Made by a program: the position numbers and the translations under genes. A DNA stretch of 62,285 nucleotides, the filler included. It is 11 parts of 11 records of this genome, joined end to end, with 100 filler letters (N's around TTAATTAATTAA, not from the genome) between each part and the next. Parts side by side here need not be neighbours in the genome. Positions count along the whole stretch, not along the records: positions 39,753 to 42,937 come from SRR15195285_5964; 10 more parts are not named here. One strand, given 5' to 3'. The notes under the pieces are model-generated. The model searched no databases and was not told the DNA's origin. It worked only from the letters and a program-made list of their open reading frames with translations. Positions 1-43,161 of the stretch are shown piece after piece; position 1 is the stretch's first letter; every line of letters begins with the position of its first letter.

Positions 1-42
1 GCGCGCAGGCCGGTCTCGCTCGGTGCGCCTTGGCATGCTCTC

Positions 43-245
43 CTTAAGTTGCAACCTCGGGACATACTTGTGACTTAAGGTCACGAACTCGCGCTTCGCA
101 CCCAACTGTTTTCACATTTTCACGTGCATGTCACCAACCTCAACCACCCCCCACCGTGCAATGACACGCGATTCCAAAACGAATTTCTGATTTCCTATAA
201 CGCGACATTTTGCGCTTAAGTTACAACCTCGGAACATACTTGTGA
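43..245. repeat. 31-bp direct repeat pair (43-73 and 215-245)
   Basis: CTTAAGTT(G/A)CAACCTCGG(G/A)ACATACTTGTGA, 29/31 identical. The first copy is itself bracketed by the inverted repeat CCTTAAGT (42-49)...ACTTAAGG (73-80). Confidence 0.85.
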
Positions 246-717
246 GTCATCCAATGGCACAAGTCGGACAAGTTCGTTTCCATCAGCATCCGCTATAACT
301 CTTTCGATTCGATAATGAGTTCCAATAGGTGTTCGTTCGTATATCTGGTTCCGGTACAGTCCGCGCGCGCGCCGCCCGAGGGGGATCCAGCGCGGGGATC
401 CAGCGCGCATGGGGGCATTCTGTTGTCAGCTACCTGACAATATACCGGTATAGGCACTAGTACAGGGGTAGCTAGTTGTTCGCAAATGTTCGGCGCGTGC
501 TCCAGGGAGTGACATGCACCCGCCCGCGCGGCGCGGTCGTTTCGTTCATCGATTACATCGATGTCGGCGATCCATCCGCGTGAGGTCTACAGCGTCAGAC
601 GCGCGGTCTACTAGTACTCGCTACTATGCGGGTACATGCGACGACACTGCTGGGCCGACAGAACTACTGAGGGAGGCCAAGCGGGTGCGTGCTCCCGGAC
701 CAGAACACAGGCAAAGG

Positions 718-2112
718 ATGTCAGCCGCAAGCACACATGGCGAGGAGGATGAACGCCGGGGTGCGACTGGAGATGATGAGCTACTGGTTGTGAGCTACAA
801 TCTCTCGTTCGCTGTGCAGAAGGACTGGTTGTTCCCGGTGGCGTCTGAGTGGTGGCTTGTCAAGGAAGGCCGGGAGGCACATGGTGGCGACCAGCACGAC
901 TTTGGCAGCAAGAGCCCGGATGAGCGCGACTTCCTGGCCGAGTGGAAAATATCGCTGTGCACCAAGAATGCAATGGAGGCACTGTCAGAGCTGCGTGGCC
1001 CGCATGGAAGTATCGATCTCATTGGGCTGCAAGAATGCAACCAGGTTGAGCGGCCACGGAGCTTCCACGCAGACCCGAAGACGTGGAAGGCCGGGTTTGG
1101 CTTCACATCGAGCGCGGTCCAGTATTTGGATGCGCTGTTGTGCGGGACGAAGTGCGAAACGCCGGAGCTGAGCGATTTCCGCGACGAGCCAGGTCTGGAG
1201 AAGACGGAGAGCAGGCCGAACACGGTGCTGTTTCAAAGCATCGGGTATGTGAGGTCCACGCTCTACGGAGCTGGGGCGATCGCCGCTGTGGTGTACAACA
1301 GAGACACCATGGGTCCACACCAGCGGGTGGCCGAGGGGGAGTGTGAGACGGAGGCCTCCATCGCGGCGGACTCTGTCTTGGCGGGCCGACCGTTCCTCAT
1401 CCTGTACTTTGAGAAACGCAACATTGCCGTCATCAACATCCATGCGCCGCGGACGGAAGACCCCAAAAGCGGCATGCAGTCATACACGAAGCAGCAGTAC
1501 CAGGCGCTATATGACCGCATCGGGCCGCATGTTCATGAGCTGGTAGTGTCCCGAGGGGCCCGTGTGATCCTTGTATCGGACTCGAATGACGAGCTGCACA
1601 TCGCAACGGAGAGGTCGGAAGGCCCGCTAGGAGGAGAAGGCAGTGCGGACGCTGCGTGCCCACACGAATTCATCGACATGGCCTTGAGCGCAGACCACCG
1701 GCTGAGGCTCTGCATGCCGGGGTTGCGCGATCAGCCGGCCTTTGAAGTCCAGAGCAGGCCCGGATACCTCCCACGCACATCCGCGTGGCCCACACTGGTC
1801 AAAGTCGGAACGGAACCCGATGAAGACGGTGCAGCGGTAGACAAGTACGCGGCCAAGTACGATCCCAGCGGACCGAAATTCTCGGCTACGATCGATCTCA
1901 TATTGGATTCTGGCTGGGGCCCAGACAGCCAGGAGTGTCACGCCACGTTGGGTGTCCCACCATCGATCGACTATCAAGCCCAGTACGATGCCAAAGCAGG
2001 GCCTGGGTCTGCCTTCGCAGACACACCATGGGACCAGATGAACAAGACACATTTCACATGGATGAGCGACCATGCGCCAATGTGCATGCACTCGAAGATT
2101 CAAAAAACCTGA
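718..2112 (+). CDS. Endonuclease/exonuclease/phosphatase (EEP, DNase I-like) family protein
   Basis: EEP motifs occur in the expected order: LLVVSYNL, DLIGLQE, VINIHAP, VILVSDSN (GDxN variant), IDLIL, and the C-terminal MSDHAP. The likely start is ATG 718; the ORF-track start at 514 lies in a motif-rich upstream region. Confidence 0.8.
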   Translation: MSAASTHGEEDERRGATGDDELLVVSYNLSFAVQKDWLFPVASEWWLVKEGREAHGGDQHDFGSKSPDERDFLAEWKISLCTKNAMEALSELRGPHGSIDLIGLQECNQVERPRSFHADPKTWKAGFGFTSSAVQYLDALLCGTKCETPELSDFRDEPGLEKTESRPNTVLFQSIGYVRSTLYGAGAIAAVVYNRDTMGPHQRVAEGECETEASIAADSVLAGRPFLILYFEKRNIAVINIHAPRTEDPKSGMQSYTKQQYQALYDRIGPHVHELVVSRGARVILVSDSNDELHIATERSEGPLGGEGSADAACPHEFIDMALSADHRLRLCMPGLRDQPAFEVQSRPGYLPRTSAWPTLVKVGTEPDEDGAAVDKYAAKYDPSGPKFSATIDLILDSGWGPDSQECHATLGVPPSIDYQAQYDAKAGPGSAFADTPWDQMNKTHFTWMSDHAPMCMHSKIQKT

Positions 2113-2520
2113 GCCAGTCATGTAAAGCGAACATCTGCAGTATGCAAGAGAGAAGAAGTGTATACACTAGGTCACTAGTATACGCGTATGGACCGGGATT
2201 TGCGTGCTTAAAAAAAAGAGCCCAACACGCAGGTACAAAAAGGACCACCAGTGCGCACAGGAGCACGCGCCACAGGCATACCATCAAGCCCACCTCCGTG
2301 GCGGACGCGACAGGAGGACACCCGAAAGCGATTTCCCGACGGGTATACCACCGCGCGACAACACAAGGTTGGCTCACGCCGCGGGCGTGCACCCTGCACC
2401 GCGCCATTACTATACATGTAGATTGGTACTGGTACCGTACCAGGTTCGATTCGACATACCAGTATGCCCAGGTTGGTGAGAGCGCGGTGCGGCTACATGC
2501 GTAGCTGGATAGCCGCCAAC

Positions 2521-2882: not shown

Positions 2883-5213
2883 TCACACCATGGTGGGCTC
2901 CACCGTTGCCACTAGCAGCTGCACTCCGCACAGTGTCTCGCGCTCCATTTTGACGCAGTGCAGGTAGGTGAGAGGCGGGTACAGGAACTCCTGCTCGTTC
3001 GGGTAGACCGACAGAAAAGAGATGTCCGCGCCGCGGTTGATGCAGTTCTTCGTCACGATGCGGAAGACCAGCGGCAGGGACGACGCCGCGAAGTTCAGCA
3101 CCGCCACCTCCTGGCTCGCGGTAGTCGACACGCAGGCATAGTCGGTGCCGCCCTCCGTCATGAACTGCCCGGTGATTCCGACGTCCTTGAGGCCGCGCCA
3201 CAAGATGCGCTCGACGTAGGCGTCCGCACAGGTGGCCGCCACAGCCCGCAAGAGGCGAATGCCGTCGCTAATGAAGTAGGTCGTGGCGGCAAACGGGTGC
3301 GGCCTCTGCGGCGGGTCGGCGCGAAGTGGGTCGTTGATGCGGCTGTAGCTCGAGGTAGTGTAGAGCCGCAGGGCGATGATGTGGTGCCGTCCGAGCTTCG
3401 CTGTCTGGGCGCTGCTGTGTGCAAGCAGCGAGTCGACCGAGACACCGGGGCAGGCCCAGCCGGGAAGTCTGGTGCCAGCCAGTACGCAGCGGTAGTTCGC
3501 CTGGTCCTCCGCGGTGCCGTGCGCCGCAAACTCCTGCTCGATCGCCGCCTCGTGCTGCTGGAGGTAGGTCCCGATGATGGCATCGCTCACGCCTAGCAAA
3601 ACCTTGATGCCGTGGGCGGCGTCGGAACCTTTGCCGAGCCGCATCTGCTTGTCGGCGGCGATGTACTTGTCGAGCATGGCCGTCAGGGGCTCGGGCTCGG
3701 GCTCCGGCTCTGCGGCAGCTGCTCCCCCGGCCACGACTTGAGACACGGCTGTGACTGCATTAGTTTGCGTCATCGGGGCCGTCGGGTCAGCACTGGATGC
3801 AGCAGGAATTTGTTTGCGCAGACGTTTGAGCTGGATGGCATTGAAGCCGATTGCTTGGAGCTGTTCATCGGTCACGTCCTCTAGCTCGGAGGCTTCAGCA
3901 ACACCGAGCTGGGAGAGCGCAACCTCGAACGCGCCGAACTTGTTTTGCGCGCAAAATTCTGTGAGTGTCATAGGGCCAGCCGTTGGGGCTGCCGGCAGGC
4001 TCGTGTTCTGGACGATCAGACTAGGAGATGCAGGTTGCCCGTGCTGAATGAGCGGCGCTTGCAGCCCTTGCTGTTGTTGCAGTTGCTGCTGTTGGTACTG
4101 ATGTTGTGCAAGAGGTTGTGCGAGGGTAGCTTGTGTCCATACTGGTTCGCCTTGGGTTGGTGGTGCTACCACCTGCTGTTGCTGCCAATGTATACTGGTG
4201 GTCATAGCCTGTGGTGGCTGCCCACCAGGTGCTAGGCGAGTGAACTGGTCGATGCGCCCCAAGAAGGATGGCTGACCAGGTACAACGACGATAGTAACTT
4301 GGCCTGTTTTTGGATCGACATCGACCCCCGTGGCGGTGTAGTTCCATTGGATGTAAACGGCTATTGCTGTGCTTGCGTAGATGAGCAGCTCGACGATAGC
4401 CTCCTCAGAAAACATGTGGAAGAACCCGTAGAAAATGCTGTACAACGTGAGGGTTGACCCCAAATACGCCGTGTTCACGATAATGCACACCTTCTGAAAT
4501 TTTAGGAATACGAATCCCATCGCAATTCCTCCAACCACGGCAACAATGCCGAGGCCTTCGGATTGCAGCGCCTGGCTGCTACCCAGAAATACCATCCCCA
4601 CAGAGGAGACAACCAGCATTCCAAAGCCGCAACCGGCGCAGAAGATCACGATGAAGTACATGGCGATGAAACAAAAACCTCCGCACGCGCCCCCGATCAG
4701 GAAGGCTAGGAGCATCATGGCCTCAGGATCTGCTTCGCCGTTGGCACTGGCGCTGATCCAAGCAATTACGCCAGCAATGAAGCCGACAAAAAGGAAACCC
4801 ATTAAGAAGACGACATACTTCCAAAGACGGTATCCAAGCAGTGCAGTTAATAGTCCAATCGGCAAGAAGATCAGCCCGAGTGGCACAGTTGTCGCGTAAG
4901 AGACCGCGGAGAAGTCAATGCTGGGGAGGCTGTTCTGTTCGCTGGGGAGGCTGTTCGCGCCGGTCGGTGGGGTCGGCGGGGGAGAACAACCTGAGCTGAA
5001 TACGCCGTTTCCACCATTGTATGGCACCCCACAGTTGGTGGGGTACTGGATGGCGCAGCCTTCCTTGGTAGAAGCGTGCCCAACAACAGTCGGACTGCAG
5101 CGATATCCGGCACAACAGGTGCACGTGCAGTTGTCGGCATCAACGCTCCCCACAAGCGAGACTAGCACGACCACAGCAGCCTGCCTTGCGATTCGTTCTA
5201 GCGCCATTTCCAT
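2883..5213 (-). CDS. Signal peptide + small Cys-rich ectodomain + TMEM198/TM7S3 (DUF4203)-like multi-TM domain + Gln-rich linker + SAM + C-terminal R-S-E mono-ADP-ribosyltransferase
   Basis: Signal peptide MEMALERIARQAAVVVLVSLVGSVDA, then CTCTCC...C...C...C. A hydrophobic Gly-rich helix series begins GLLTALLGYRLWKYVVFLMGF and ends IVNTAYLGS...VYIQW. SAM-like segment LTEFCAQNKFGAFEVALSQLGV...LQAIGFNAIQLKRL. ART motifs LRLYTT..Y..IN..LR, LWRG (R), CVSTT (S), GADISFLSVYPNEQEFLYPP (ExE). Confidence 0.85.
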   Translation of the reverse strand: MEMALERIARQAAVVVLVSLVGSVDADNCTCTCCAGYRCSPTVVGHASTKEGCAIQYPTNCGVPYNGGNGVFSSGCSPPPTPPTGANSLPSEQNSLPSIDFSAVSYATTVPLGLIFLPIGLLTALLGYRLWKYVVFLMGFLFVGFIAGVIAWISASANGEADPEAMMLLAFLIGGACGGFCFIAMYFIVIFCAGCGFGMLVVSSVGMVFLGSSQALQSEGLGIVAVVGGIAMGFVFLKFQKVCIIVNTAYLGSTLTLYSIFYGFFHMFSEEAIVELLIYASTAIAVYIQWNYTATGVDVDPKTGQVTIVVVPGQPSFLGRIDQFTRLAPGGQPPQAMTTSIHWQQQQVVAPPTQGEPVWTQATLAQPLAQHQYQQQQLQQQQGLQAPLIQHGQPASPSLIVQNTSLPAAPTAGPMTLTEFCAQNKFGAFEVALSQLGVAEASELEDVTDEQLQAIGFNAIQLKRLRKQIPAASSADPTAPMTQTNAVTAVSQVVAGGAAAAEPEPEPEPLTAMLDKYIAADKQMRLGKGSDAAHGIKVLLGVSDAIIGTYLQQHEAAIEQEFAAHGTAEDQANYRCVLAGTRLPGWACPGVSVDSLLAHSSAQTAKLGRHHIIALRLYTTSSYSRINDPLRADPPQRPHPFAATTYFISDGIRLLRAVAATCADAYVERILWRGLKDVGITGQFMTEGGTDYACVSTTASQEVAVLNFAASSLPLVFRIVTKNCINRGADISFLSVYPNEQEFLYPPLTYLHCVKMERETLCGVQLLVATVEPTMV

Positions 5214-5577
5214 TTCGGCCCACCGAATAAGCACCGATACGCGCGGACGCGTCGTCGTCCAGCACACCACCACGCCCGGCCGTGGAAAGCGAGCGCCTGA
5301 GATCGTACGCGAGCACGCGAGCGCGTGGGCCTGTCGCGGTTTTGTCGCAGTGCTCGTCAGCCAGCAGCAGTGTGCTCGCGTCAGTCCGTCCGCGCGTCAG
5401 GGAGCAGGCAGCGCGAGTCGCGCGGATTCAGCATGCACGCGTGCACTATCTACTGTATGCATAATAATCAATATTGACAACACCTGAACGCATGGAATTG
5501 CAGAAAGCAGAAAGCAGAAAGCAGGAAACAAGCCGCAGGAAACAAGCCGCTCTAAATTTTCCACGAGCTGAGATCGC

Positions 5578-5650: not shown

Positions 5651-5750
5651 NNNNNNNNNNNNNNNNNNNNNNNNNNNNNNNNNNNNNNNNNNNNTTAATT
5701 AATTAANNNNNNNNNNNNNNNNNNNNNNNNNNNNNNNNNNNNNNNNNNNN
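5651..5750. other. Artificial contig linker (44 N + TTAATTAATTAA + 44 N). Identical linkers at 14099-14198, 21845-21944, 25568-25667, 32515-32614, 39653-39752, 42938-43037, 46359-46458, 55702-55801 and 58974-59073
   Basis: Ten identical 100-bp blocks carry a six-frame stop spacer. ORFs run into them and are cut (EF-hand, Cys-rich, Myb, kinesin and WW genes). Confidence 0.98.
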
Positions 5751-6298: not shown

Positions 6299-7377
6299 TC
6301 ACATGCGTGCAACGCCATTGCACTTTAGACTGTGCGTTCCTGTTTCCTTGTTCTCTCTCGTTGTCTGTGGTGGCGATGTGGCCGGAATAGCTCCGCTGAC
6401 TGTCTGGTCGCCGAGCTCTCGCATTGCCTGCTCATTTTCTTCAGAGTCGAGCGCCAGAATCCATCTCGTCGACTCATTCATCGACTGCTGCACGCCAAGG
6501 GGGATCAAGCGCTTCTGGTGCTGCTGCTGAGGCATATCCCTGCGGCACCAGAACAAATGCACGGCGGCTTTGCCCCGAGTGCCGGTCGGGGATAGATTCT
6601 CCGTGCCTGAGTGCCAGGTGTGAGCATTCATAACTATGCAGTCCCCACGGTCGCAGGTAATCTGCACCTCGGCAGGGTGTGCTGCGCTCGGATCGGGCAT
6701 GTCTTCGGCAGGGAGACGCTGCCACCTGTGAGATCCAGGAACAGCACGCAAGGGACCGGTGATGGTGCTGTAGGGCGCGAGTGCCACTAAGACGTTCACC
6801 ACCCATGGCCCTATATCGTCAGCGACAGCGGAGAAGTCCGCATGCAATGGCTGCCTGCCTGCTGGTCCATCGTTGACGTTGCTACTAGACGGGACGACAC
6901 GCGCATTTGCTGAGCTGAGTTTTAGTCGAGAACCACCGAGGATGAAGGCCACATATTCTAGGACCCCGCGATTGGTGGCGAGTCGCTCAAAGATGCCATC
7001 CTTCCCAACCAGCGCTGCCAGCCGGGAAGTCCCCGCCTCCTGTCGGAACTCGGAGCCTGCTGCCGCGCCTTCTGCTGCCAGTAGCCGATGTACCGCCGCC
7101 TCCTGCGGCGACCGTGCGAAGCGTGCAATATACAAGTCGTCAGTGTCTGGCTCAACTTGTAAGCGATGATGGCTAGCAGCTACGATAGATGCACCGTGTT
7201 GGCTAAGAGGCATCAAACTGCCCGCACCGCTTCGCCCAGCAGTCTCTCGCTGAGCAACCCCTTGACGACACAGAAGCCACGCTCTGTGAGCTGATCGGCG
7301 TGCTCCGATGGGATAGCTCCCTGCAGCGCTGCCAGCTCAGCAGGCACTGGCGCTTCCATTGCCAGCTCAGCAGGCAT
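6299..7377 (-). CDS. Phytanoyl-CoA dioxygenase (PhyH)-family Fe(II)/2-oxoglutarate dioxygenase, 2 exons
   Basis: Exon 1 (7377-7228) reads MPAELAM...EHADQLTERGFCVVKGLLS. Intron 7227-7103 is GTGCGG...CACTGAC...CCGCAG, phase 0. Exon 2 has QPLHADF (HxD), GPLRAVPGSHRW and GDCIVMNAHTWH (distal His). Confidence 0.88.
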
Positions 7378-13366: not shown

Positions 13367-14198
13367 GCTCTCGTGCCGTCCGCGCGTCCTGCGCCGAAGC
13401 CGTCCACCAGCGCACGCGCGCGCTACGCCCGCGACCACCCGACAGCTATCGATAGCGCTCAGCCCGCCACGCGCGCGCGGACGACCGCGGATCTTTCACT
13501 CGTACGCGTGCGCGCGCGCGAGCTCCACCGGCCGCGCCGTCACTGTATTGGAATATGGGTATTTCTGACTCGGCTGTTCGTGAGTCTGATCATCACTGAG
13601 TGACTACCGTACATGTACTGGTATGTGTATGAATGCATGTACCCCCTTACAGTGCAACTCTATTCTCCCGTGGGAGCGAGAGTTGTGGCCAGGTATTTTT
13701 GGTCCCAAGAACATCCTTTCACTATGAGGGTATGACTGGTGGGACCGGTACAAAATAGATCTATTGTACCATTTTCTCTGATTCAGCCTCAGTGGCGGGC
13801 TACGTGGTTGACTGTACAGTACACAGTCTATCTGACGGTAGCGGAACAGCTACACGAGGTGGTGGTGGTGGCCCTGGTGCGAGGGTGTAGGCGACGCCGC
13901 GGCCGGTGCCGCAGTCGCTGGGGGCGTTGTAGACACAGCACACGCTGAGCAGGAAGAGGACAATCACCTACGGCAAGTCCGCTCACGTGGTGCACAACCT
14001 GCTGCGTGCACTCTCCGCGAAGAAATGTCCGAAGAACGGCTTTGGTCGTCAGCAGCTTGCTTCCGACACAGTTAGTGCAGATTGCCCGTCAGTCGCCTNN
14101 NNNNNNNNNNNNNNNNNNNNNNNNNNNNNNNNNNNNNNNNNNTTAATTAATTAANNNNNNNNNNNNNNNNNNNNNNNNNNNNNNNNNNNNNNNNNNNN

Positions 14199-32614: not shown

Positions 32615-35600
32615 GTAAACTGGGCGTGGCACCGTTCGAAGGCAGCAACATGGTGAGTTGATGGTGGTTATATGAGGTTAGGGCTGAGTCGCTGGGTGGT
32701 TATATATGCGCTTGCATTAGTGTATGCACGGTGGTGAGCGTGCTGGAGCGTTGGCAAGACGACTTCCGGCTGTTGCACAGACATGACTGATTAAGCACAT
32801 TGGATGTACATGCATAGTGTCATTGTCAAAACTAAGCAGCCTCTTTGTCTAGTTCAACTCAGTGTGTGACTTGGTATCTACTCACAAATGAGCACTCCTG
32901 CGCCACAGACGACCGACCCAAGCTGTCAACTGGACGTGGCACCATTCGAAGGCGGCAAGATGGTGAGTCAATGTAGGCTAAAAGGTTCACACCCACACGT
33001 TTACGGTGCAACCGCATGCACTGCAGCCCCGCCAAGAAAGTACGACCAAGACCTGGATGCCACTACAGCTCCTCTGGAGTGTGGCCATGGTGCCCCAGTG
33101 GTGTGCACGGCGAATTTCGACGGCACGGGAGGAGTAGTCCCTTGCGACGAGACGAGATGTACCCGTACCGGCAATCTATGGTCTGCTGCGGACTTAACCT
33201 GCCGCACCGAGCTCGGTGCTCTTCGCGGAGTGGCCACTTGCACCAGTACAGCAACAAACACAGCAGACACTCCTGACTGTGCGTTAGCATTCGCGACCGC
33301 TGGGAATGGTCTCCCTGATTCGTGTGCAGATGGGTGCACGTATCGCGAGCCTTTCGATCAAAACGCGTGCGTGTACACTGGGCACGTGTGGGATGCTGAG
33401 ACGGGTACTTGCTTAGATGTGAGCGGAAGGGGATACTGCTTGGATGCTGACGGCGACAGAATGGTCGAATCTATGTCGACTCATGACTGGCGCGACCCAG
33501 ACCTATGCGAGTCCGTTTCTGGGAGGACGTGGGTCTGGCAACAGTTCCGGGGTTATCAAACGGACACACTTGAAAACGGTGGTGCAACGCAGTGTATAAT
33601 GTGTCCGTCAGGCGCGGCAGACACTGACCGGACGTCAACAACCGCATGTTCCACATGCGATCCCGGTGAGACTACGATGCGGTGCACTGATGCATCCGGG
33701 GTTGTTGCAGCAGCAGTGAGCGAAGAGGAGTGCACTGCAGCGCCCAGCTGCGGCGATTTTACTGTAGCAGAAGGCTGCCCACCAGGTTGTGGCGACGATG
33801 GGACGGAATGTACTGGGGATGCAGATACACCTTCGACGACTTGGCAAGCACAAGGTGCCACCAGCTGCTTGCTTTGTCCAGCAGTCATGGTTGAATCATG
33901 CGCAGGCACCGCCTCGGGAGACGATACTGGCATGACGTGTGATTTGGATAGCGCCACGGATGATATTGCTACGTGCCCATCAGGACGTGATCACTACCAG
34001 CCACCTGCAGACGATGTAACTTTTACTACTACTGGCAATTCGTTTGGATCTGAATCGTACTGCTATGCTTCGGACGGTTCCACGACGATATCTGACCTTG
34101 ACGAGGCTACATGTAAGGTCGAGCCAAGTCCTTACACGTGGCATTTGCAACTTGGGGCGACCGAGTGCACTGCGTGTGCGCAGGGATTCGCTGATGTCGA
34201 TGGAATCTCAGTTGCTGCTTGTGAGTCGTGCCCGGTGGGGACCACGACTGTGCGCCAAAATGAAGACGGGACCAGCTCCATCGCCATTGCAGCCACTGTG
34301 TGCTTTCCTTGTAGTGATGGATCCTATGACCATGATATGACTGCTACAACACCGTGCTTCGAATGTTCTGCTGGCAAATATGGTCAGGGCGCCGACGACG
34401 AATGCGGTGACTGTCCATCGGGCTTGTACGATGACGATCGCTCAAGCACTACCCCATGCGTGACCTGTGCTCTCGGCCAACATTCCAACCCCGGTCAAAC
34501 TTACTGTCAGTACTCAGCTCAAAGAGGCGTGACGTGCGCATCTTGTGAGAAAGGCCAAACCGACATGGACGGTCAGGCCACGCAGGATCTGTATCTGTCT
34601 GGTGCAGGTAGCCTCCCTCTGGTCGCTAGGAGGTGCATAGATGTGGATGACTACTCGCTGTTGGCTGACATTACTGACGAGGCAACATGTGTTGGAGATG
34701 CTGAATCGCCAACTGGGCGGACTTGGACCTCGCCCACGCCGCAATGCCTAACACATTTTGTCCCCGGCACATGTACCCGCCCATCTGGCAATACTTGGCC
34801 CGAGCCAAATGGTCTGTGTTTGGATGGCAATGGACAAGAGGTCATTGTTACTAGGCCAGGAGAAACCTTGACAGCCCGGCAGCTCGAAGCCATGTGTACA
34901 CGGACGGCCGTCCCCATCTTTGACGAGGCTGGTTGCACAAGCCTAGTTCAGGACGCAACGTGGAGTGTCTACGAGCACTGCGCGCAAGCACAGACCTCTC
35001 CAGATGAGATAACAGAGGATATGAGAAATGCTGACCACACATCGTGCGAGTCTCAGTCGACGGACAATACGTTCGTTGCAGGTAGTTGCACGGATACAAG
35101 CGGTGACACGACATCCCACTCCACTGAGGATTCGTGTGAGTACGAACCCACTTCCAATACGTGGGATCCAAGCGCTGCCGCGGGTGATGAGTGTTCGGAC
35201 TCGAACGGCAACGTGCTGCCAGTGCAGCCCGGCGACGAATCAGCTTGCGTCCAACAAGAGAGTGGTCGCACGTGGTCGCCTGGTCAATGCTTTGCGCCTG
35301 ACAGCAGCTTGCTGGCAGATTTGACGACGCAGTCTGACTGTTTGTACACATCAACAGCAAACACGTGGTTTCCAGGCATCTGTATGAGGAACGACATGGT
35401 GACCTGGATGGAGGCACTCATTGATGGCATTCTGGTTGATGTGCTTGATGAAGCAATGTGTGATCAGATGCAGGCTGAGTGTACCGCCATCACGGATCCG
35501 TGGTACCGTGTGGGTGCGTACCTTGCCGAACGGGACGACATGTGTCGTACTGGTGCGGTTGTCCAGGAGCTAGCGAGTGTGCAGCCGTTCGCACTGGACA

Positions 35601-38600
35601 CTTGCAACAATGCTGCGGAGTATGCTTCAACGCACTCGGTGACGTTGCAGGCTGCCTGCACTGCAATGGCAGATGTAATTACTGCAGCAGTTGATGCAGA
35701 TCCTAGTCATCCATGTGCAAATGCTGCAGCTGCTTGCGCCTGTGTATTTACACCACAGGAGGTACCGTCTGCCGGCACTCCGTGCGTACAGTGTGCATCT
35801 GGACGTTACACTGATCGGTTGTTCTTCGGAGAATGTGACGAGTGCGACGCCGGTAGGTATGATGAGGACGCTGATCCATCGACACCGTGTGAGGATTGCT
35901 TCGTAGGACGGTACAGTAGCGCTGGCCAGGTCGAGTGCATCGATTGCGCTGGTGGCACATACGACCATGATCAGAACCCGGCGACCACGTGTCTTGACTG
36001 TCAGGTCGGTTGCCATTCTGCTCCGATCGTACACAAGGTTTGCACTACAGCTAGCGGTGATATTTGGAACATTTCCCACATTGAAGACCCTGTAGAGTCC
36101 GACTGCATCAACGACCTTAGGCCCGATAATGTCTGGAGCGTGTACGTTGCTGGCGCGTTCGGGCCCAACGGCTGTATCGGCTGCGATTTTGGCACGGCAG
36201 ACGAGGACCTGGATCCCGCAACAGCTTGTAACCAGTGCCAACCCGGTCAGTTTGCCCCACAGCTCGCAACTGGATGTACTGATTGCCCACAAGGATATGG
36301 TGACGATGACCTTGATCCGTCCACTCCGTGTGTCCAATGTCGTGTCGGGATGTTCGCTCCGGCTGGCGCAACGAACTGCACAGGATGCCCACCAGACAAG
36401 CACGACGGGGACTTGGAGTCGACCACGCCCTGTGAGGACTGTCTAGCAGGCCGGTATTCAGGTTCTGGCTGGACCAACTGTACCAACTGCACTACTGGGT
36501 TTGCGGACGAGGATCAGAACCCTGCTACCCCTTGCGACGCATGTGCACCGGGTCAGTACATGCCAGAGTTTTCGATCATCTGTGTGGACTGCTTGGCATT
36601 CGAGTATGACAATGACTCCAACCCAGCCACACCGTGCGTGCTCTGTGACGAGGGGCACCATACGAACGGCCTGGCGTGCATTTCTTGTGCAGCTGGTCTG
36701 TTTGACGATGATACCGACCCAGGGACTGAGTGCGAGTCCTGTATGATCGGACAATATTCTCCTATGGAAGCTGTCTCATGTACGGACTGTGCTGCAGGCG
36801 CTCACGATCACGATCGAGACCCAAGCACTGCTTGTGAACTATGTGGCCCAGGAAACTTTTCTGCCCTTGGCGACTTGTTCTGCTTCCCCTGTCGGCCCGG
36901 GACACACGACAACGATACCGACGCGTCGACGCCTTGTGTCTCTTGTCCAAGGGGGACGTTCTCAGAGGGTGCTACTGAATGCATTGACTGTGCAGCAGGA
37001 CGCATTGACCGGGATTTTGATCCGGCATCTCCCTGTGTAGCCTGCCCGCCTGGCTCGTACGCTGGCGAAGGCGCCACGGTGTGCATTACTTGTGCTGCCG
37101 GTCAGATCGACCACGATCAGGACCCAGCAACAGAGTGCTCTGCGTGCGAGCCGGGTAAGCACTCTGCATTCGGCGACTACAAGTGTGATGCATGCTTCAC
37201 CGGGTATTACGATGCAGATGAAAGTGCTGCGGCACCGTGCACCCGATGTGAGGCCGGACAATTTTCGTCAAAGCTGGGCAGATGCTCAGCTGGGTCGACA
37301 GACCTGTTCACGTACTTTCAGTGGTCTAGACCTTTGCCTCAGACCGAGGGAGAATGCACCACCGCAAGCAACTCGAACATATGGTCGTCTTCTTTTCGAT
37401 GTGTTGACACGGATGGTCTGACGACGTTGCCAGAAGTTACAGACCAAAGCGCTTGCACTGATGTTGCAGGTCGTGTCTGGACGTCTGGATGCTTCTCATC
37501 TGATGGTTCGTTTGTGTCCGCACGTATCACTCGGCATGAGTGCACCACAGATCCGACGGGCAACCTGTGGGTGGTCGCGTTTCCTGGTCTGTGTGACGCA
37601 GATACCAATCCGGTTGATGAATGTAGTAGCGAGGTGACGGTGGACACTGGTATCACGCAGGAATGCTTCGACGCCATCACCGAATCTCCCAGTGCTGCTG
37701 CATTCGTAGAAACTCTGGATAGCTGCACCGCATGTGGGTCCATTGACGGACCTGCGGATATTTGTTCTGCATGCGAAGCAAACATTCTGGCAGCACTTGC
37801 CCGCTGCACTCCCACTGGTGCAGCGGAGCATTCGATTTGCGTCATTCCGACGATGAGCGAGTATGAAACATGCGAGCTCAAGTCCTCTAATAACGTGTGG
37901 TTTCCACCCGTGTGCCGGACCGCGCCTACTACCAATACGTGGGGCGGCGATCCACCTATATGTACTGATGACCGTGGTCGGAACAGCCAGACGGCTGCTA
38001 CATCGGAAGCTGAGTGCGTGGGCAACGCACCCGTGATAGCATTGGACGAGACGGAGTGTGAGATCGAAGCCACGGGCCGAACTTGGATAGATGGTTGGTG
38101 CAACGACTATGCGCGTTGCATTGACACGGACGGCTCCATCGCAGCTGAGTTTACGGCAGAGTCCGAGTGTGTAATCGATTCGACAGGCAATACATGGAAT
38201 CTAGCTGATGTGCTGCCAACCGGGGTTGCAGACATAAATGCAGACGCCGACACAGTGACCTTTGCGATATCCCAGACCTCGCTCGTAATTGGCCAGGCCC
38301 TTCAGCTGGGGCACAACGTGCCAACTTGCGATTTGAGCGCTGCCACAGATGGGACAGGTGACTGCCCTGCAGGCTGCTTGTTCATAGATACGACTACACC
38401 AGTTTGCCAGTGGGAAGACGCAGACGCTTTGACTGGATGTCCTGTTGGTTGCGCGGAAGACCTGAATCAAGGCACCTGCACTGGGGATGCTACGCCTGTG
38501 CCAGCAACCTGCACAGGTCAAGCAAATGCGAAGAACTGCGCTGCGACGGTGGGCGTCGACCTTGTCATTTCAAATGTGCAGGGTGCTCAGGTCACGTTTG

Positions 38601-39652
38601 CAACGGACATATTGGCTGGAGACCCGGACGCTCTCCAGAATTGCCACATTTCGAGAAAGCTCTGTACGTCAGACTCTGGCTTAGTCGTGGAAGCTGACGA
38701 CCAGGACGAATGCGAGCTGGTAGATAGCGGACGTTCATGGATCACCCCACGTGTGGCAGGTGTAACCGACGAAACCACGTGCGAGTGGGAAGCCACGGGT
38801 TACACGTGGGACGCTGTTGGAACATGTCATCTGCTTTGTGCGTACTCGCAAGGCACCGAGGGGTGTCCAGAGGGTTGCACGGATGACGGAACCACCTGCT
38901 CTGGGGAGACTGATGCGCTGCATTCGACTATTGCGTCGGAGGCCGAGTGTGGAGGCTCGTGTGTTGTGACTCCTGGCACCAGCGAAGAGGAGGCAAACGA
39001 GGCAACCACATGCACTTTGACCATTGGCGACTGCACTGTTGCCACAGGCTCTGGCTCATGTGCGTACGCCACCTCAACAGAGACAGTATGGCGGACTGGC
39101 CAGTGTTGGGAAGGAGCCAGCACAGTCAGCGCCACGAACGAGGCTGACTGCGAAACAGTTCGGATTTCTCCAGCGCGAACTTGGGTGGAACCATACTGCA
39201 ACGATGCTAACGGAAATCAACTTTCTTCAAGCGCTGCTGGCACAGAGCAAGTCTGCGAACTCGCAGCATCTGGCAACGTGTGGTCAGAAGGGTACTGCGA
39301 AGCGCCTGTAGAAAGCCTCAATCCTGTCAGTGTCGGTTTGAGCGTGGCAGAAATTGACGATACGACCAACACTGTCACCCTGGCATCTGTCGAATCAGGG
39401 ATATCCGTGGGTGATGTGCTGCATATATCCTCTGCACCCGGACAGAGTTGCCAGGCATTGCCGCTGAATACTGACCTGATCGTGGGCAGCGTCGATGGTG
39501 CCATAATCACTTTCGAGGAAGCAACCTTCGCATCCGCTGATGGAGAGGTGGCTACGGGGGATGTGGGGGCAGGCAACAACTGCATCATCGTGCGGCTACT
39601 GTTTTCAGACCAGGGCGGATGTGAGGAGATGCCCACCGGCAACACGTGGTGG
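32615..39652 (+). CDS. Giant Cys-rich surface or secreted protein with many GCC2/GCC3 (ephrin-receptor-like) CxxC repeats and C-x(3-6)-TGNTW-type repeats; truncated at both ends
   Basis: A >2200-aa stop-free ORF (32888-39652) carries many CxxCxxGxxDxDxDPxTxCxxCxxG units and C..(T/S)G(N/R)TW units. The short segments at the contig start end in ATG|GTGAGT donors, so the true start lies upstream. Confidence 0.88.
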
Positions 39653-39755
39653 NNNNNNNNNNNNNNNNNNNNNNNNNNNNNNNNNNNNNNNNNNNNTTAA
39701 TTAATTAANNNNNNNNNNNNNNNNNNNNNNNNNNNNNNNNNNNNNNNNNNNNAGG

Positions 39756-39781
39756 ACACTTTGTTCTTTTCATTTTGATTT
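39756..39781 (+). repeat. AT-rich dispersed repeat shared by two contig starts (second copy 43038-43063)
   Basis: ACACTTTGTTCTTTTCATTTTGATTT is identical at both contig edges, and both copies are followed shortly by GCAACCC. Confidence 0.85.
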
Positions 39782-40393
39782 AAAATTACTTCTCGCAACC
39801 CCAGTCCATCCATCCCCCATGGCCAAGCGCCGGCGGCCAGCAAAAGGTTTCGTGATCCAGTGCAGGTGCTCCTTGACGCAGATTCAATATTGGCGGGAAA
39901 ATTGTTGCTTCAGAAGCTTCCTGCTCCTCCTCCTGCTCCGCGTGGAACTCGTAGTGGTTCCATCGACAGTATGCGCTTCGGAGCGAATACACACAATGAT
40001 TTCCAGGATCGCTGGTCGCGAAATACTACGAGTTTATAAGACCCTCCGTACCCTGCTCCCTATTGAAAAAAATCGCAGACAGCGAGAGGAGAGCCCGTCC
40101 TGACCTGTAACCAGCACAACCTCAAGCTCATTCCAGTAGGGATTTCACCATCAATTTCAGGAGCAGTCCGCCGCCCAAAAAGCAGCAGCGCATTCCTCCG
40201 TGAATATACCAGGAAATTCATATATATCACAATTATTCATATATATATATAAATATCTACTTTTTTGCAGACCCCGGCGACTCCTGGGATCAGTGGTCGC
40301 CCCATTTCTTCCCCCATACAGCTGACTGGGCCGTTACGTTACACCCGCTCACTCCCCGACCGTTATCACCGCTCCGCTGGGCGCGACAGAGCT

Positions 40394-42937
40394 ATGCTGG
40401 CGGCTTCCAGAAGCCGCGTCTGGCGCCCCGAGGAGGACGCGGAGCTGCGGCGGCTGGTGCGCAAGGACGGCACGAAGGACTGGTGCTCCAAGGCCGCCGC
40501 CTTCCCCACCGAGCGCACCGCGTCCGCCCTGAAACACCGCTGGTCGAAGATCAACGAGGAAGGAACGGTTCGGGTGTCTCAGTCGGGACGTGGTAGTGCT
40601 GCTGATCCGGCGTGGCGCCATCCCTGCGCTGAGGTCTGCACCTGTACGAACTACGGCGAGTGCCGGCGGCTGGACAGCGCCCGCAAGCCGCAGCAACGGA
40701 CTGGCCCGGCAGCCGAAGCGCGCGGCAATGGCGGTCGGCAGCTCTCGGGGATACCGGTGGGACACGCCACCTCCCGGTCTGCGCCGTGTGGGTGCCAGCG
40801 CACACCGTGCAGCTGCGACGGTCTGGTGCATGCGCTGTCGCCGCAGCCGTCCGGCTACCGGCACCATAGAGGAGCGCTTGCAGCTGGCAACGACATTCTC
40901 TGTGCCGAGATGACGGTCGAGCAGGCGAAGCTCTACTGCCAGTCATTACCCGCGGCCGTAGGCTTCACATTTTCTTCGACTGAGGCGAACCCGAATGGGC
41001 CTGTGCTGTGCTACTTCAAATCGTCTTCTCTTGCAAACTCAGATCCTCTCTGGCAGCGGTACATGAAAACGTCTGTCGCATCACCAGTCCCGCCGAAAAC
41101 GCTGCGTTCGCAGAATCCCGATCCGATGGCGCCCCGCAAAAAGCAGCGACCGCAGAAACCCGAACCGGCGCCCCGCAAAAAGCCGGTTGCCGACATCTTG
41201 CGCAGCGTTAGAACGAAGCGCCGCGCCTTCTCGTCCGGGAGCGGCGTCCCAGAGCTAAAGGAGGAGAACACGCTGCTTTGGTTCAAGTACATCGCCGAAA
41301 GACAGCGCGTGTACAACTGCTGGTTCAACGGCGCAGGTCATCCCTGGACTAAGGATGAGACTCTCGCGCACGGGAGGATGTGCAACAACTATCGTTTTCT
41401 CGACCGCGAGTCTACCTGGGCGATTGCAAATATCGTCGAGCCGCTGCGCCAACGCCCAGCCGACCTTATCTTCAACATACTGATCTTCCGTTGCTACCTC
41501 AACTGGCACAAATCGATGGAACTGCTCGGCCTGCAGACTGCCGAGGGATTCGACAGAGCCACGTTCGAAGCGAAGCTACGAAAGGTCCATGCACAGCTGG
41601 GGAAACTGTCTAGCGCTGCGTACAATGTCGGCTCGTTCCATGCCTTCAGCGAGGCGGATGAGTTAGTTCAGGCCGAAGAGACTGGTGTAAAACCTACACG
41701 CGCATCGGTGATGTTCGCGCAGCTCGCGCCACTGATGCCAGAAGTTGCACGTTCGATCATGGAGCGGCGTGACTCGTTGCACACATTCAAAACGCTCATC
41801 AACCTGAGAGGTGTCGGACGATTTCTCGGCTGGCAGTGCTGCCTTGACCTGGGTTACTGGAATCCTGCGGTGTACAACGAATCGTTCCATGTCGAGGTGG
41901 GGCCAGGCGCGGAAGAGGGACTCTCTTGGCTGTTCAAAGACACCGGAGGATTAGATCCGATCGCGTGTGTAAAACATCTGGCTTTTGTCCAGACCGCTTG
42001 GTTCGATAAGGCTGGCATCGGCCCTGACACAAGGAGGTCACTTTTTGGCAGTATGCCTCGCCCTCCGATGACAGCTGGCGTCGGCCCAAGTACTGCGGAG
42101 TTCGCGCAAGATCTTAGCGCGATGACAGGACCACTGAACCTGATGGCGATCGAAGGCGCTTTGTGCGAAGGAAATAAGTACTTTCGAGTCCACTACAACG
42201 ATGGATCAGGACGCTTCAAGCAGCAGTACAGAGCCTCGAAGGGTGCCGACGCACGCTATAGGGCTGACTTCAGCGTCATGATGCGCACTCTGTCTAGCAC
42301 CTGGGGCGCTGTGGTGGGACATTCTCCAACGCCGCATGGCACAGCGGCGATCGGGTTTCGCATTGGCATGCAGGCTTCCGCGCTACCGTGCCTTGCGGGA
42401 GGTCGACCAGCGCAGCCCGTGGTTTCAGCCGCTGCAGGGACTGCAGCTGCGAAGAATCCAAAAAAGCCGGCTACCGTTCCAGGTGTAAAGAAGAAGAAAA
42501 AGCCAGGTACCAGGCGCACTGAGGCAGGGGCGAAAGGACCGCGACGGCAGCGCAATGCCGCAGACAAGCTGGGTACTGAACTCGTTGGAGCAGGTGCAGA
42601 GGGCCCGGGACGGAGGTACGATGCGACGGGCAGGCTTGTGAAGGATCCAAGCTTGCTGGTTGGCAAGATGGTCGAGGTTCTTCACGACCGCGTGGCCTGT
42701 ATCGGGCGTGTGTTGGAAGTGAAGCACGTATTCGGAGCCCAGGTGAGGGTTGAGTTGCCAAATGGCACAGTGGTGAACAAGCGCTTAAACAAAATCAAGC
42801 AGGTTGACACGCCACCGGACGATCGGATAGCTGAGGTGAAATCCGACGTGTCGACCCATGCGGTGTTGCAAAGCTTGTGTGCTGACCTGGACCGCGGGGA
42901 CGATGTCGACGACGACGACGACCACGACGACGACGAC
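40394..42937 (+). CDS. Myb/SANT domain + PAN/apple-like module + aGPT-Pplase1 / 5-hmdU DNA kinase helical-domain (HhH-glycosylase-fold DNA base-modification enzyme) + basic NLS region + Tudor/SH3-like barrel; 3'-truncated
   Basis: Myb: WRPEEDAELRRLVRKDGTKDW...RTASALKHRW. Catalytic region ~41273-42190: WFKYIAERQRVY..HPWTKDETLAHGRMCNNYRFLDRESTW, LIFNILIFR..N, HhH LRGVGRFLGWQCCLDL, VGPGAEEGL, LMAIEGALCEGNKY. Then KKKKKP and LVGKMVEV...IGRV...VRVELPNG. Confidence 0.82.
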
Positions 42938-43161
42938 NNNNNNNNNNNNNNNNNNNNNNNNNNNNNNNNNNNNNNNNNNNNTTAATTAATTAANNNNNNN
43001 NNNNNNNNNNNNNNNNNNNNNNNNNNNNNNNNNNNNNACACTTTGTTCTTTTCATTTTGATTTTTAAATTGTTCTTTTCATTTTGACTCATTGATTGCAA
43101 CCCACTGTGGCGTTTGCCTCACTTTTTTTCAATATACTCCGGCGCTTTCTAGAGATTACAA

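Follow-up and report, generated by a model that had tools for sequence, protein, structure and literature searches.

The closest described relatives of the gene reported here lie in phage gene clusters for thymidine hypermodification. In the pathways encoded there a kinase makes 5-phosphomethyl-deoxyuridine in DNA (Lee et al. 2021, PMC8989533), and clade 2 of the alpha-glutamyl/putrescinyl-thymine pyrophosphorylases (aGPT-Pplase; PF18724), represented by M6 gp51, ViI gp247 and PhiW-14 gp109, transfers glycine, serine or putrescine (PMC8989533). Clade 2 cannot work without a conserved Cys and a Glu close to it (PMC8989533). Besides this Cys, the reaction involves a flipped-out base and needs a metal (PMC8989533, PMC13458397); the VETVLCKWKSH motif holds the catalytic Cys and the metal-binding Glu/Thr, and in the glycine transferases the Lys after the Cys holds the carboxylate of the donor (PMC13458397). 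In eukaryotic chromatin, base J is the sole established thymine hypermodification (PMC10161547, PMC1874636). The present analysis concerns clade 1 (PF18723) and a stretch of DNA of 62,285 nucleotides, analysed as a whole and referred to as the window, in which an open reading frame (ORF) starting at position 40394 joins a PF18723 domain to a Myb repeat and further modules; its product is called the window protein below. The family was reportedly defined by Iyer et al. in 2013, in a paper whose abstract is said to mention such systems in a number of eukaryotes, among them algae of the chlorophytes and stramenopiles.

Our preferred reading, in which confidence and doubt are evenly balanced, is that the window ORF would supply the first ~850 residues of a nuclear, chromatin-tethered picozoan enzyme carrying out Cys-dependent chemistry on a flipped thymine derivative. 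It draws on the family assignment, on invariant residues that are all intact, on purifying selection at the gene, on a eukaryotic clade that has reader fusions and no kinase, and on a remote similarity to the clade-2 transferases. Relative to what is known, the new element is a eukaryotic, kinase-less form of PF18723 coupled to chromatin readers; the function set out below is the one that we infer for it.

The PF18723 domain and the gene that carries it

The window protein matched PF18723 (HMUDK_hel, formerly aGPT-Pplase clade 1) with an E value of 1.4e-41 and 143.2 bits against a cut-off of 25, over profile positions 6-278 of 281, and PHROG 2396 with an E value of 4.4e-41. The assignment to this family, made from sequence, is secure. 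A sequence-only reading had named the same clade and had placed the domain at 41273-42190, almost the same span as the Pfam match (residues 295-603); the motifs that it listed, ERQRVY, PWTKD, RMCNNYRFLDRES, GVGRFLGWQ..LDL, GPGA..GL, IE..LCE..KY, KKKKK and an Asp run, were all found in their places. A full scan of 1.84 billion representative proteins returned 1437 relatives at E<=1e-3 and 21 at E<=1e-30, and the Atlas clusters of relatives are mainly bacterial (Actinomycetota, Cyanobacteriota) and phage. By tblastn, 409 phage records were matched at <60% identity, 338 of them covering at least 80% of the query. The ORF055 product (gp55) of phage M6, which itself scores E 8e-56 against PF18723, is 23% identical over the full length, within the 23-25% identity of the phage matches. 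A sequence search of PDB with the domain alone returned nothing, and a search with profile A1 returned designed repeat proteins and RadA at chance level.

Residue conservation was counted in a 50-sequence alignment spanning the family, with the numbering of the window protein. R303, N331, R334, D337, F477, D485 and C591 are invariant (50/50), E592, K595 and G505 are each kept in 49/50 members, and position 587 is Glu in 38 and Gln in 11 of the 50. The window protein carries every one of these residues, with Glu at 587. Its PF18723 core is complete and, judged by its residues, looks active. In a sub-branch of the eukaryote-like clade, formed by P0053 and P0057, the GPGA motif is replaced and the helix-hairpin-helix (HhH) hairpin is altered, and these two proteins may be inactive or retargeted.

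A remote similarity to clade 2 was found by profile-profile comparison with a 30-sequence PF18724 profile (E 6.3e-4, probability 28%, 105 columns). The alignment pairs the HhH hairpins, matching that of clade 1 to the clade-2 segment GFGPWIGFK..D, and also pairs E587..C591 with E243..C247 of the transferase (IEGALCE/VETVLCK). The median spacing between hairpin and Cys agrees between the clades, with 91 residues for clade 1 and 94 for clade 2. The two control comparisons with reversed profiles gave E values of 0.36 and 0.19; among 30 column shuffles the lowest E value was 0.0079, and the real score beat both reversed controls and 30/30 shuffles. The comparison with Escherichia coli endonuclease III (Nth), which used one sequence and had less power than the clade-2 profile test, aligned the 17-column hairpin only (E 0.035). 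No Pfam match to PF18724 or to the HhH-GPD families was obtained for the window protein at E<=1; on these results the domain is not an ordinary repair glycosylase.

The gene was also traced in public sequence data. Parts of the stretch are held by 19 listed public runs from 16 studies, labelled as marine or seawater metagenomes and, in one case, as rhizosphere; six of the 19 are RNA libraries, and the label 'DNA' for the others is a guess. A contig of run X2 (2702 nt) is collinear with 40241-42925, with 16 differences and one gap, a contig of run X1 (1994 nt) spans 40943-42936 with one difference, and no assembly joint within the gene was seen in any public run matched. Since an independent contig is collinear over both the Myb and the catalytic parts, the gene is not an assembly chimera and contains no intron in 40241-42925. 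The intronless ORF described earlier is upheld for this interval; the claim reaches no further on a 3.2-kb contig. Across the contigs of four public runs, 14 distinct coding differences were found, of which 12 are synonymous and only V61A and T390A change a residue. The variant sites are scattered over the Myb repeat (codons 14 and 47, both synonymous), the N-terminal module, the catalytic domain, where every site but one is synonymous, and the C-terminal module. The ORF is a real, constrained coding sequence under purifying selection. The RNA libraries X14 and X15 contain near-identical contigs over parts of the gene, a result consistent with expression that is no proof of it; gene bins left uncovered in these two runs are uninformative.

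Accessory modules, eukaryotic relatives and host

In the scan of the whole protein the Myb repeat scored 23.6 bits with PF13921 (cut-off 22.9). When the region was scanned alone, it scored 29.0 bits with PF13921 and 28.7 bits with PF00249 (cut-off 24.4), and its closest solved relative is repeat R1 of c-Myb (E 2.7e-10). The Myb/SANT repeat noticed from the letters, with W10, W31 and W51, was thus borne out. Residues 60-290 and 685-848 matched no Pfam family at E<=10, and no NCBIfam or PADLOC model matched the window protein. The small Cys clusters of the sequence-only reading are visible in the first of these regions and belong to no Pfam family at that threshold. Residues 160-224 share 31 invariant columns with P0004 and P0024, and their PDB matches are at chance level; a PAN/apple-like identity was considered for this segment and found no support from Pfam or PDB. 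The proposed Tudor/SH3-like barrel corresponds to a module (residues 754-804) that is conserved among close relatives. For its identity, a language-model (Atlas) score of 0.80 with Tudor families on top is a weak lead; Pfam gave no match to this module at E<=10, and its PDB matches are at chance level.

Three relatives extend ~400 residues beyond the window ORF: P0002 and P0003, with 90% identity in the catalytic region, and P0004, with 84%. P0004 carries a C-terminal chromodomain (PF00385, residues 994-1060, E 7e-12). P0002 and P0003 are alike at the start of this region and then diverge, perhaps because an unspliced intron was read through. By analogy, a chromodomain is expected in the truncated C-terminus of the window protein.

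The placement of the window protein was examined in a quick IQ-TREE analysis (LG+G4) of 124 rows: 185 of 202 collected proteins matched profile A1, 142 of these over at least 250 profile positions, 19 near-duplicates were dropped and M6 gp55 was added. Fourteen rows labelled eukaryote-like and two cluster mates form one clade of 16 rows, with a Shimodaira-Hasegawa-like approximate likelihood-ratio test (SH-aLRT) support of 90. With the unnamed P0058 the clade has 17 rows (SH-aLRT 93), and with P0093 and P0095 it has 19 (SH-aLRT 94). P0093, just outside the 16-row clade, comes from the green alga Cymbomonas tetramitiformis. Inside the clade, source names point to Picozoa and, for P0045, to Namystynia karyoxenos, a diplonemid; the Euglena longa protein P0061 aligns with the clade and is too short for the tree. 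The kinase-fused bacterial forms make up a separate clade of 41 rows, and M6 gp55 lies elsewhere. Thirteen eukaryote-like proteins were scanned with Pfam, and a kinase domain was present in 0/13. One has a chromodomain (P0004), one a bromodomain (P0007, E 8e-16) and one a Myb repeat (the window protein). Matches below the cut-off were to Tudor-type families in P0005 and P0024, which belong to one cluster, and to AP2 in P0053. In 7/13 PF18723 was the only domain found.

The host is most probably a picozoan. Picozoa are plastid-lacking marine heterotrophs known mainly from single-cell genomes. The other contigs of the window encode EF-hand arrays, an SH3 protein, an OSCA/TMEM63-type channel, an MFS transporter and a protein joining TM7S3, SAM-like and ADP-ribosyltransferase domains. 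Over 521 residues the channel protein shows 100% identity to P0194, and the source name of that protein is built like those of the entries listed by EukProt as 'Picozoa sp.'. Relatives of the window protein at 57-70% identity fall in clusters with Picozoa-named members. The paralogous metagenome loci L002 and L005 have introns within the gene, and a neighbouring gene in L005 shares a repeat module with the 2270-aa protein of the window (E 3e-15). The neighbouring EF-hand, SH3 and OSCA-type proteins, the identity to P0194 and these introns agree with the eukaryotic host assumed in the sequence-only reading. Among nine loci of a metagenome scan no orthologue above 70% identity was found.

The window consists of 11 contigs of 3.1-9.2 kb, separated by ten copies of TTAATTAATTAA with N runs on both sides (linker positions include 5651-5750 and 14099-14198). 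The contig of the gene occupies 39753-42937 only (~3.2 kb), has no second gene on it and has no physical linkage to the other contigs of the window. Both of its ends are high-copy repeats. The first ATG directly follows an in-frame stop region, and the frame is open through 42937. Because the contig breaks inside the 13-copy GAC repeat, the protein is truncated at its 3' end and the Asp run is internal; the poly-Asp tail of the sequence-only reading, which would have been a protein terminus, is contradicted by the cut within the repeat and the missing stop codon. The 5' untranslated region (UTR) contains a pyrimidine tract followed by CAG at about 40260-40269. A 40-nt multi-copy element was observed in it at 40292-40331, with a metagenome depth of up to 34 vs ~8 around it, and several public contigs match the contig solely at this element. 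Rfam at gathering thresholds gave 0 matches and a tRNA scan gave 0 genes. The coordinates of the features are given in the table.

Features of the contig that carries the window ORF, with strand and the evidence for each
Feature	Coordinates	Strand	Evidence
5' leader, spliced-leader-like	39753..39785	+	common to next contig; depth; divergence downstream
Long 5' UTR	39786..40393	+	sequence; RNA-library contig X14 record 9 spans 40127-40466
Coding sequence, 848 codons, 3' open (no stop, contig end)	40394..42937	+	ORF reading, variants, collinear contig
Single Myb-type repeat, residues 10-53, Trp 10/31/51	40421..40552	+	Pfam, c-Myb R1 match
Two small Cys clusters, residues 76-94 and 130-143	40619..40822	+	sequence reading
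Conserved N-terminal module, residues 160-224	40871..41065	+	common to P0004, P0024
PF18723 / aGPT-Pplase clade 1 catalytic-type domain, residues 295-603	41276..42202	+	Pfam, PHROG, phage identity
HhH motif LRGVGRFLGWQCCLDLGYW, with F477 and D485	41804..41860	+	50/50 alignment, endonuclease III, clade-2 segment
IEGALCEGNKY motif with C591, E592, K595, E587	42149..42181	+	50-sequence alignment; clade-2 VETVLCKWKSH
Lys5 run (KKKKK) in basic stretch, resembling a nuclear localisation signal by eye	42488..42502	+	sequence only
Conserved beta-rich module, residues 754-804	42653..42805	+	conserved in 4 orthologues, with 25 invariant columns
GAC x13 repeat (Asp run), site of contig break	42899..42937	+	Tandem Repeats Finder (TRF); depth 20,000-39,000 from unrelated contigs
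Artificial linker (N run, TTAATTAATTAA, N run)	42938..43037	.	not biology

A T-rich 25-nt leader, ACACTTTGTTCTTTTCATTTTGATT, opens both this contig (39753) and the next one (43038), where it is followed by a partial tandem copy (43038-43094). In public runs the leader has depths of 1156, 1740 and 214 vs about 4-10 downstream, and past 39785-39789 the public contigs that bear it split into many unrelated sequences. This pattern suggests a picozoan spliced leader, or remnants of such a leader. The 18-nt leader was not found in the 10 metagenome loci compared, and a literature search with the leader sequence gave no match; the Picozoa and spliced-leader papers found are, by title or abstract, not about trans-splicing in Picozoa. 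Short introns lie inside the PF18723 domain of the paralogues in L005 (3262-3364) and L002 (about 900-970). Together with the leader, the lack of introns in the window copy over 40241-42925 raises the idea that this copy was perhaps retro-copied.

Several further observations were made on other contigs. ORFs ending in X residues are cut by contig ends, as is the 2270-aa ORF ending at 39652. It encodes a giant Cys-rich protein (32888-39652, plus strand, >2255 aa) with weak ephrin-receptor-like matches and a repeat module of ~80 aa with the pattern IDD..TVTLA..G..L.L....C.A.P...DLVV.SV.GA.I, which recurs in L005 in the gene at 2-2464 (minus strand), beside the PF18723 paralogue. An unusual fusion at 2883-5273 (minus strand) joins a TM7S3/TM198-like membrane domain, a SAM-like domain and a C-terminal NAD:arginine ADP-ribosyltransferase (PF01129, E 9e-8). 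A PhyH-type 2-oxoglutarate/Fe(II) dioxygenase (PF05721, E 7e-16), encoded at 6299-7216 (minus strand), is not of the TET/JBP type and is the sole dioxygenase seen in the window. The segment 53727-54662 (minus strand), on a 9.2-kb contig otherwise poor in long ORFs, encodes a RecA of bacterial type (PF00154, E 1.8e-84); this could be an organelle-targeted protist RecA or mark a bacterial contaminant contig.

Proposed reaction and its alternatives

In phages and phage-type loci, clade 1 keeps company with hypermodification genes. The gene order in M6 is gp51 (PF18724), gp52, gp53, gp54 (PF18748, the kinase acting on 5-hydroxymethyluracil (5-hmU) in DNA), gp55 and a thymidylate-synthase homologue. 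In the metagenomic phage-type locus L009 PF18723 is followed by PF18724 and then the kinase, and in L008, of the same kind, PolA is followed by PF18723 and then a TET-associated glycosyltransferase. Clade 1 thus stands among thymidine-hypermodification genes in 3/3 phage or phage-like loci examined.

The reaction that we propose has four steps. The HhH segment would bind DNA, and a base derived from thymine, its 5-methyl group oxidised or activated as in 5-hmU or the phosphate ester of 5-hmU, would be flipped out. Cys591 would then attack C6, aided by Glu587, Glu592 and Asp485, and the substituent on the 5-methyl carbon would be exchanged; this step is modelled on the distantly related amino acid:DNA transferases. 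Finally, the N-terminal Myb repeat and the expected C-terminal chromodomain would place the enzyme on particular chromatin. Substrate, chemistry, targeting and the presence of 5-hmU in picozoan DNA are all what we infer here. The sequence-only reading had the Myb and Tudor-like domains direct the mark to specific sequences or chromatin; as so stated this goes too far for a single R1-like Myb repeat and a weak Tudor call, and targeting is kept here as a suggested role.

A broader proposal, which we regard as tentative at best, is that a novel hypermodified thymine is written into the own chromatin of Picozoa, and perhaps also of diplonemids, euglenids and certain green algae, by a small set of clade-1 enzymes. 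Each of these would have a reader of its own (Myb together with chromodomain, bromodomain, or Tudor-type modules), placement would follow histone marks or DNA motifs, and the product would be a second eukaryotic thymine mark besides base J. Euglenozoa make 5-hmU and base J (PMC10161547, PMC1874636), and the euglenozoan relatives of the window protein fit a 5-hmU-derived substrate without proving it.

Several points weigh against the proposed enzyme. In M6, lysates without gp52, gp53 and gp55 still yielded glycinyl-thymine (PMC8989533), so the M6 clade-1 protein was dispensable in that reconstitution. The claim of the sequence-only reading that the phage members act on 5-hmU is shown for the P-loop kinase and for clade 2 only; in clade 1, gp55 could be omitted (PMC8989533). 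No demonstrated activity or assay of any clade-1 protein was found in the literature examined. The literature on aGPT-Pplase that was searched deals with phages and prokaryotes, plus one human sweat-vesicle study, and treats no eukaryotic member, as the sequence-only reading had supposed in knowing of no characterised one; no paper joining 'thymine pyrophosphorylase' with 'chromatin', or naming HMUDK_hel, was found either. The link to clade 2 is weak, given its probability of 28%, and covers the C-terminal half only. The residue after the Cys is Glu592 (49/50 in clade 1) and Lys in the glycine transferases; with Glu in place of the Lys that binds the donor carboxylate, the donor or the reaction probably differs. 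A thymidylate-kinase-like P-loop domain is present in 9/14 scanned long prokaryotic forms with an N-terminal extension (6 of the 9 above the Pfam cut-off), and another such form, P0094, ends in C-terminal MazG and MazG_C. Since bacteria have these kinase fusions and the eukaryote-like proteins have none (0/13), the activating step is unaccounted for. No TET/JBP, 5-hmU kinase or hydroxymethylase was seen among the window ORFs scanned besides the one studied here (18 of at least 250 aa and one of 181 aa), and within that scope the earlier statement that no partner making 5-hmU lies in the window was confirmed. We know of no modified-base data for Picozoa, for which no search was made. Confidence in the enzyme was set no higher because no clade-1 protein has ever been successfully assayed and because the kinase and the 5-hmU source are unaccounted for.

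The strongest alternative, which we consider unlikely, is an eraser or processing enzyme that would recognise 5-hmU, base J or another derivative in chromatin and either excise the base or drive loss of the hydroxymethyl group through its Cys. The alignment of the HhH hairpin with endonuclease III speaks for it, as do the dispensability of M6 gp55 in the forward pathway and the occurrence of relatives in Euglenozoa, which already possess a base J writer pathway; a reaction without phosphate activation would also fit proteins that carry a kinase in 0/13 cases. Against this stand the lack of any HhH-GPD match at E<=1, the location of the phage gene within biosynthetic clusters, and the invariant Cys-Glu pair, which with its spacing resembles the transferases and not the glycosylases.

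Quite improbable is a defence role, in which the target would be viral DNA or the DNA of ingested prey, hypermodified or rich in 5-hmU, and not marks on the cell's own chromatin. Most members of the family are bacterial or phage proteins, and bacterial aGPT-Pplase-MazG proteins, of the P0094 type with MazG and MazG_C, have been predicted by machine learning, without validation, to act in anti-phage defence (PMC13092281). The fusions to Myb, chromo- and bromodomains, however, point to the cell's own nucleosomal chromatin, no PADLOC model matches the protein, and no close relative was found in viral contigs.

Still less probable is a non-catalytic reader that would do no more than bind a modified thymine, with its chromatin modules bringing in other factors. 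In the literature examined clade 1 has no known activity, and the current Pfam name denotes a 'helical domain' of a kinase and not an enzyme. Yet all invariant polar residues, including Cys591, are kept despite 23-25% identity to phage members, and the variant sites in the domain are synonymous with one exception; P0053 and P0057, which lost GPGA, show what relaxed members look like, and the window protein is not among them. An artefact (contamination, mis-binning of the contig or chimeric assembly), which the chain of short contigs, the physical isolation of this one and the high-copy repeats at both its ends might suggest, is highly improbable in view of the collinear contigs from other runs over the Myb and catalytic domains, the leader common to the next contig, the relatives at 57-70% identity clustered with Picozoa-named members, and the L005 paralogue with an intron in its domain beside a gene sharing the repeat module of the 2270-aa protein.

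The gene documents the uptake, by several protist lineages, of an intact enzyme-like domain of phage thymidine-hypermodification clusters; in these lineages the kinase partner of the bacterial forms is gone and Myb, chromo- and bromodomains have been joined on. An active domain would hint that a new epigenetic base exists and that histone marks and the chemistry of DNA bases communicate. It would further provide a way into the study of clade 1, in phages as well. Because Picozoa are virtually uncultured, Euglena longa and Namystynia, with their relatives of the window protein, offer a test of the question in species that grow in culture and already contain 5-hmU.

Comparison with known systems

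The HhH-GPD glycosylases (endonuclease III, MutY, AlkA) share the hairpin with the window protein, which has an invariant Cys-Glu pair where these enzymes have a catalytic pattern of their own. The base J pathway, formed by the thymidine hydroxylases JBP1/2 and a glucosyltransferase, starts from 5-hmU, and two named relatives of the window protein come from Euglenozoa. Its proteins belong to families unrelated to the window protein, neither a JBP nor the glucosyltransferase was seen in the window, and to our knowledge base J has not been reported for Picozoa.

The bacterial kinase-PF18723 and PF18723-MazG-MazG_C fusions contain the same domain, with 330-376 bits to the Pfam model, far above the score of the window protein. 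They differ in forming a separate 41-row clade with nucleotide-kinase-type or MazG modules, whereas the eukaryotic clade is without these modules (0/13).

The PF18724 transferases (M6 gp51, ViI gp247, YuA and PaMx11 Pplase2) remotely resemble the window protein from the HhH hairpin to E..LC and are the best available model for its chemistry, with base flipping, attack of the Cys at C6 and a metal. Unlike them, the window protein has no Pfam match to PF18724, aligns in its C-terminal half only, and has Glu for the donor-binding Lys. Phage clade 1, represented by M6 gp55, shares the full-length domain and the invariant R, N, R, D, F, D and C together with GPG and LCE..KY. In phages the domain makes up a separate protein of about 300 aa encoded in a hypermodification cluster, whereas the window protein is longer than 848 aa, multi-module and eukaryotic.

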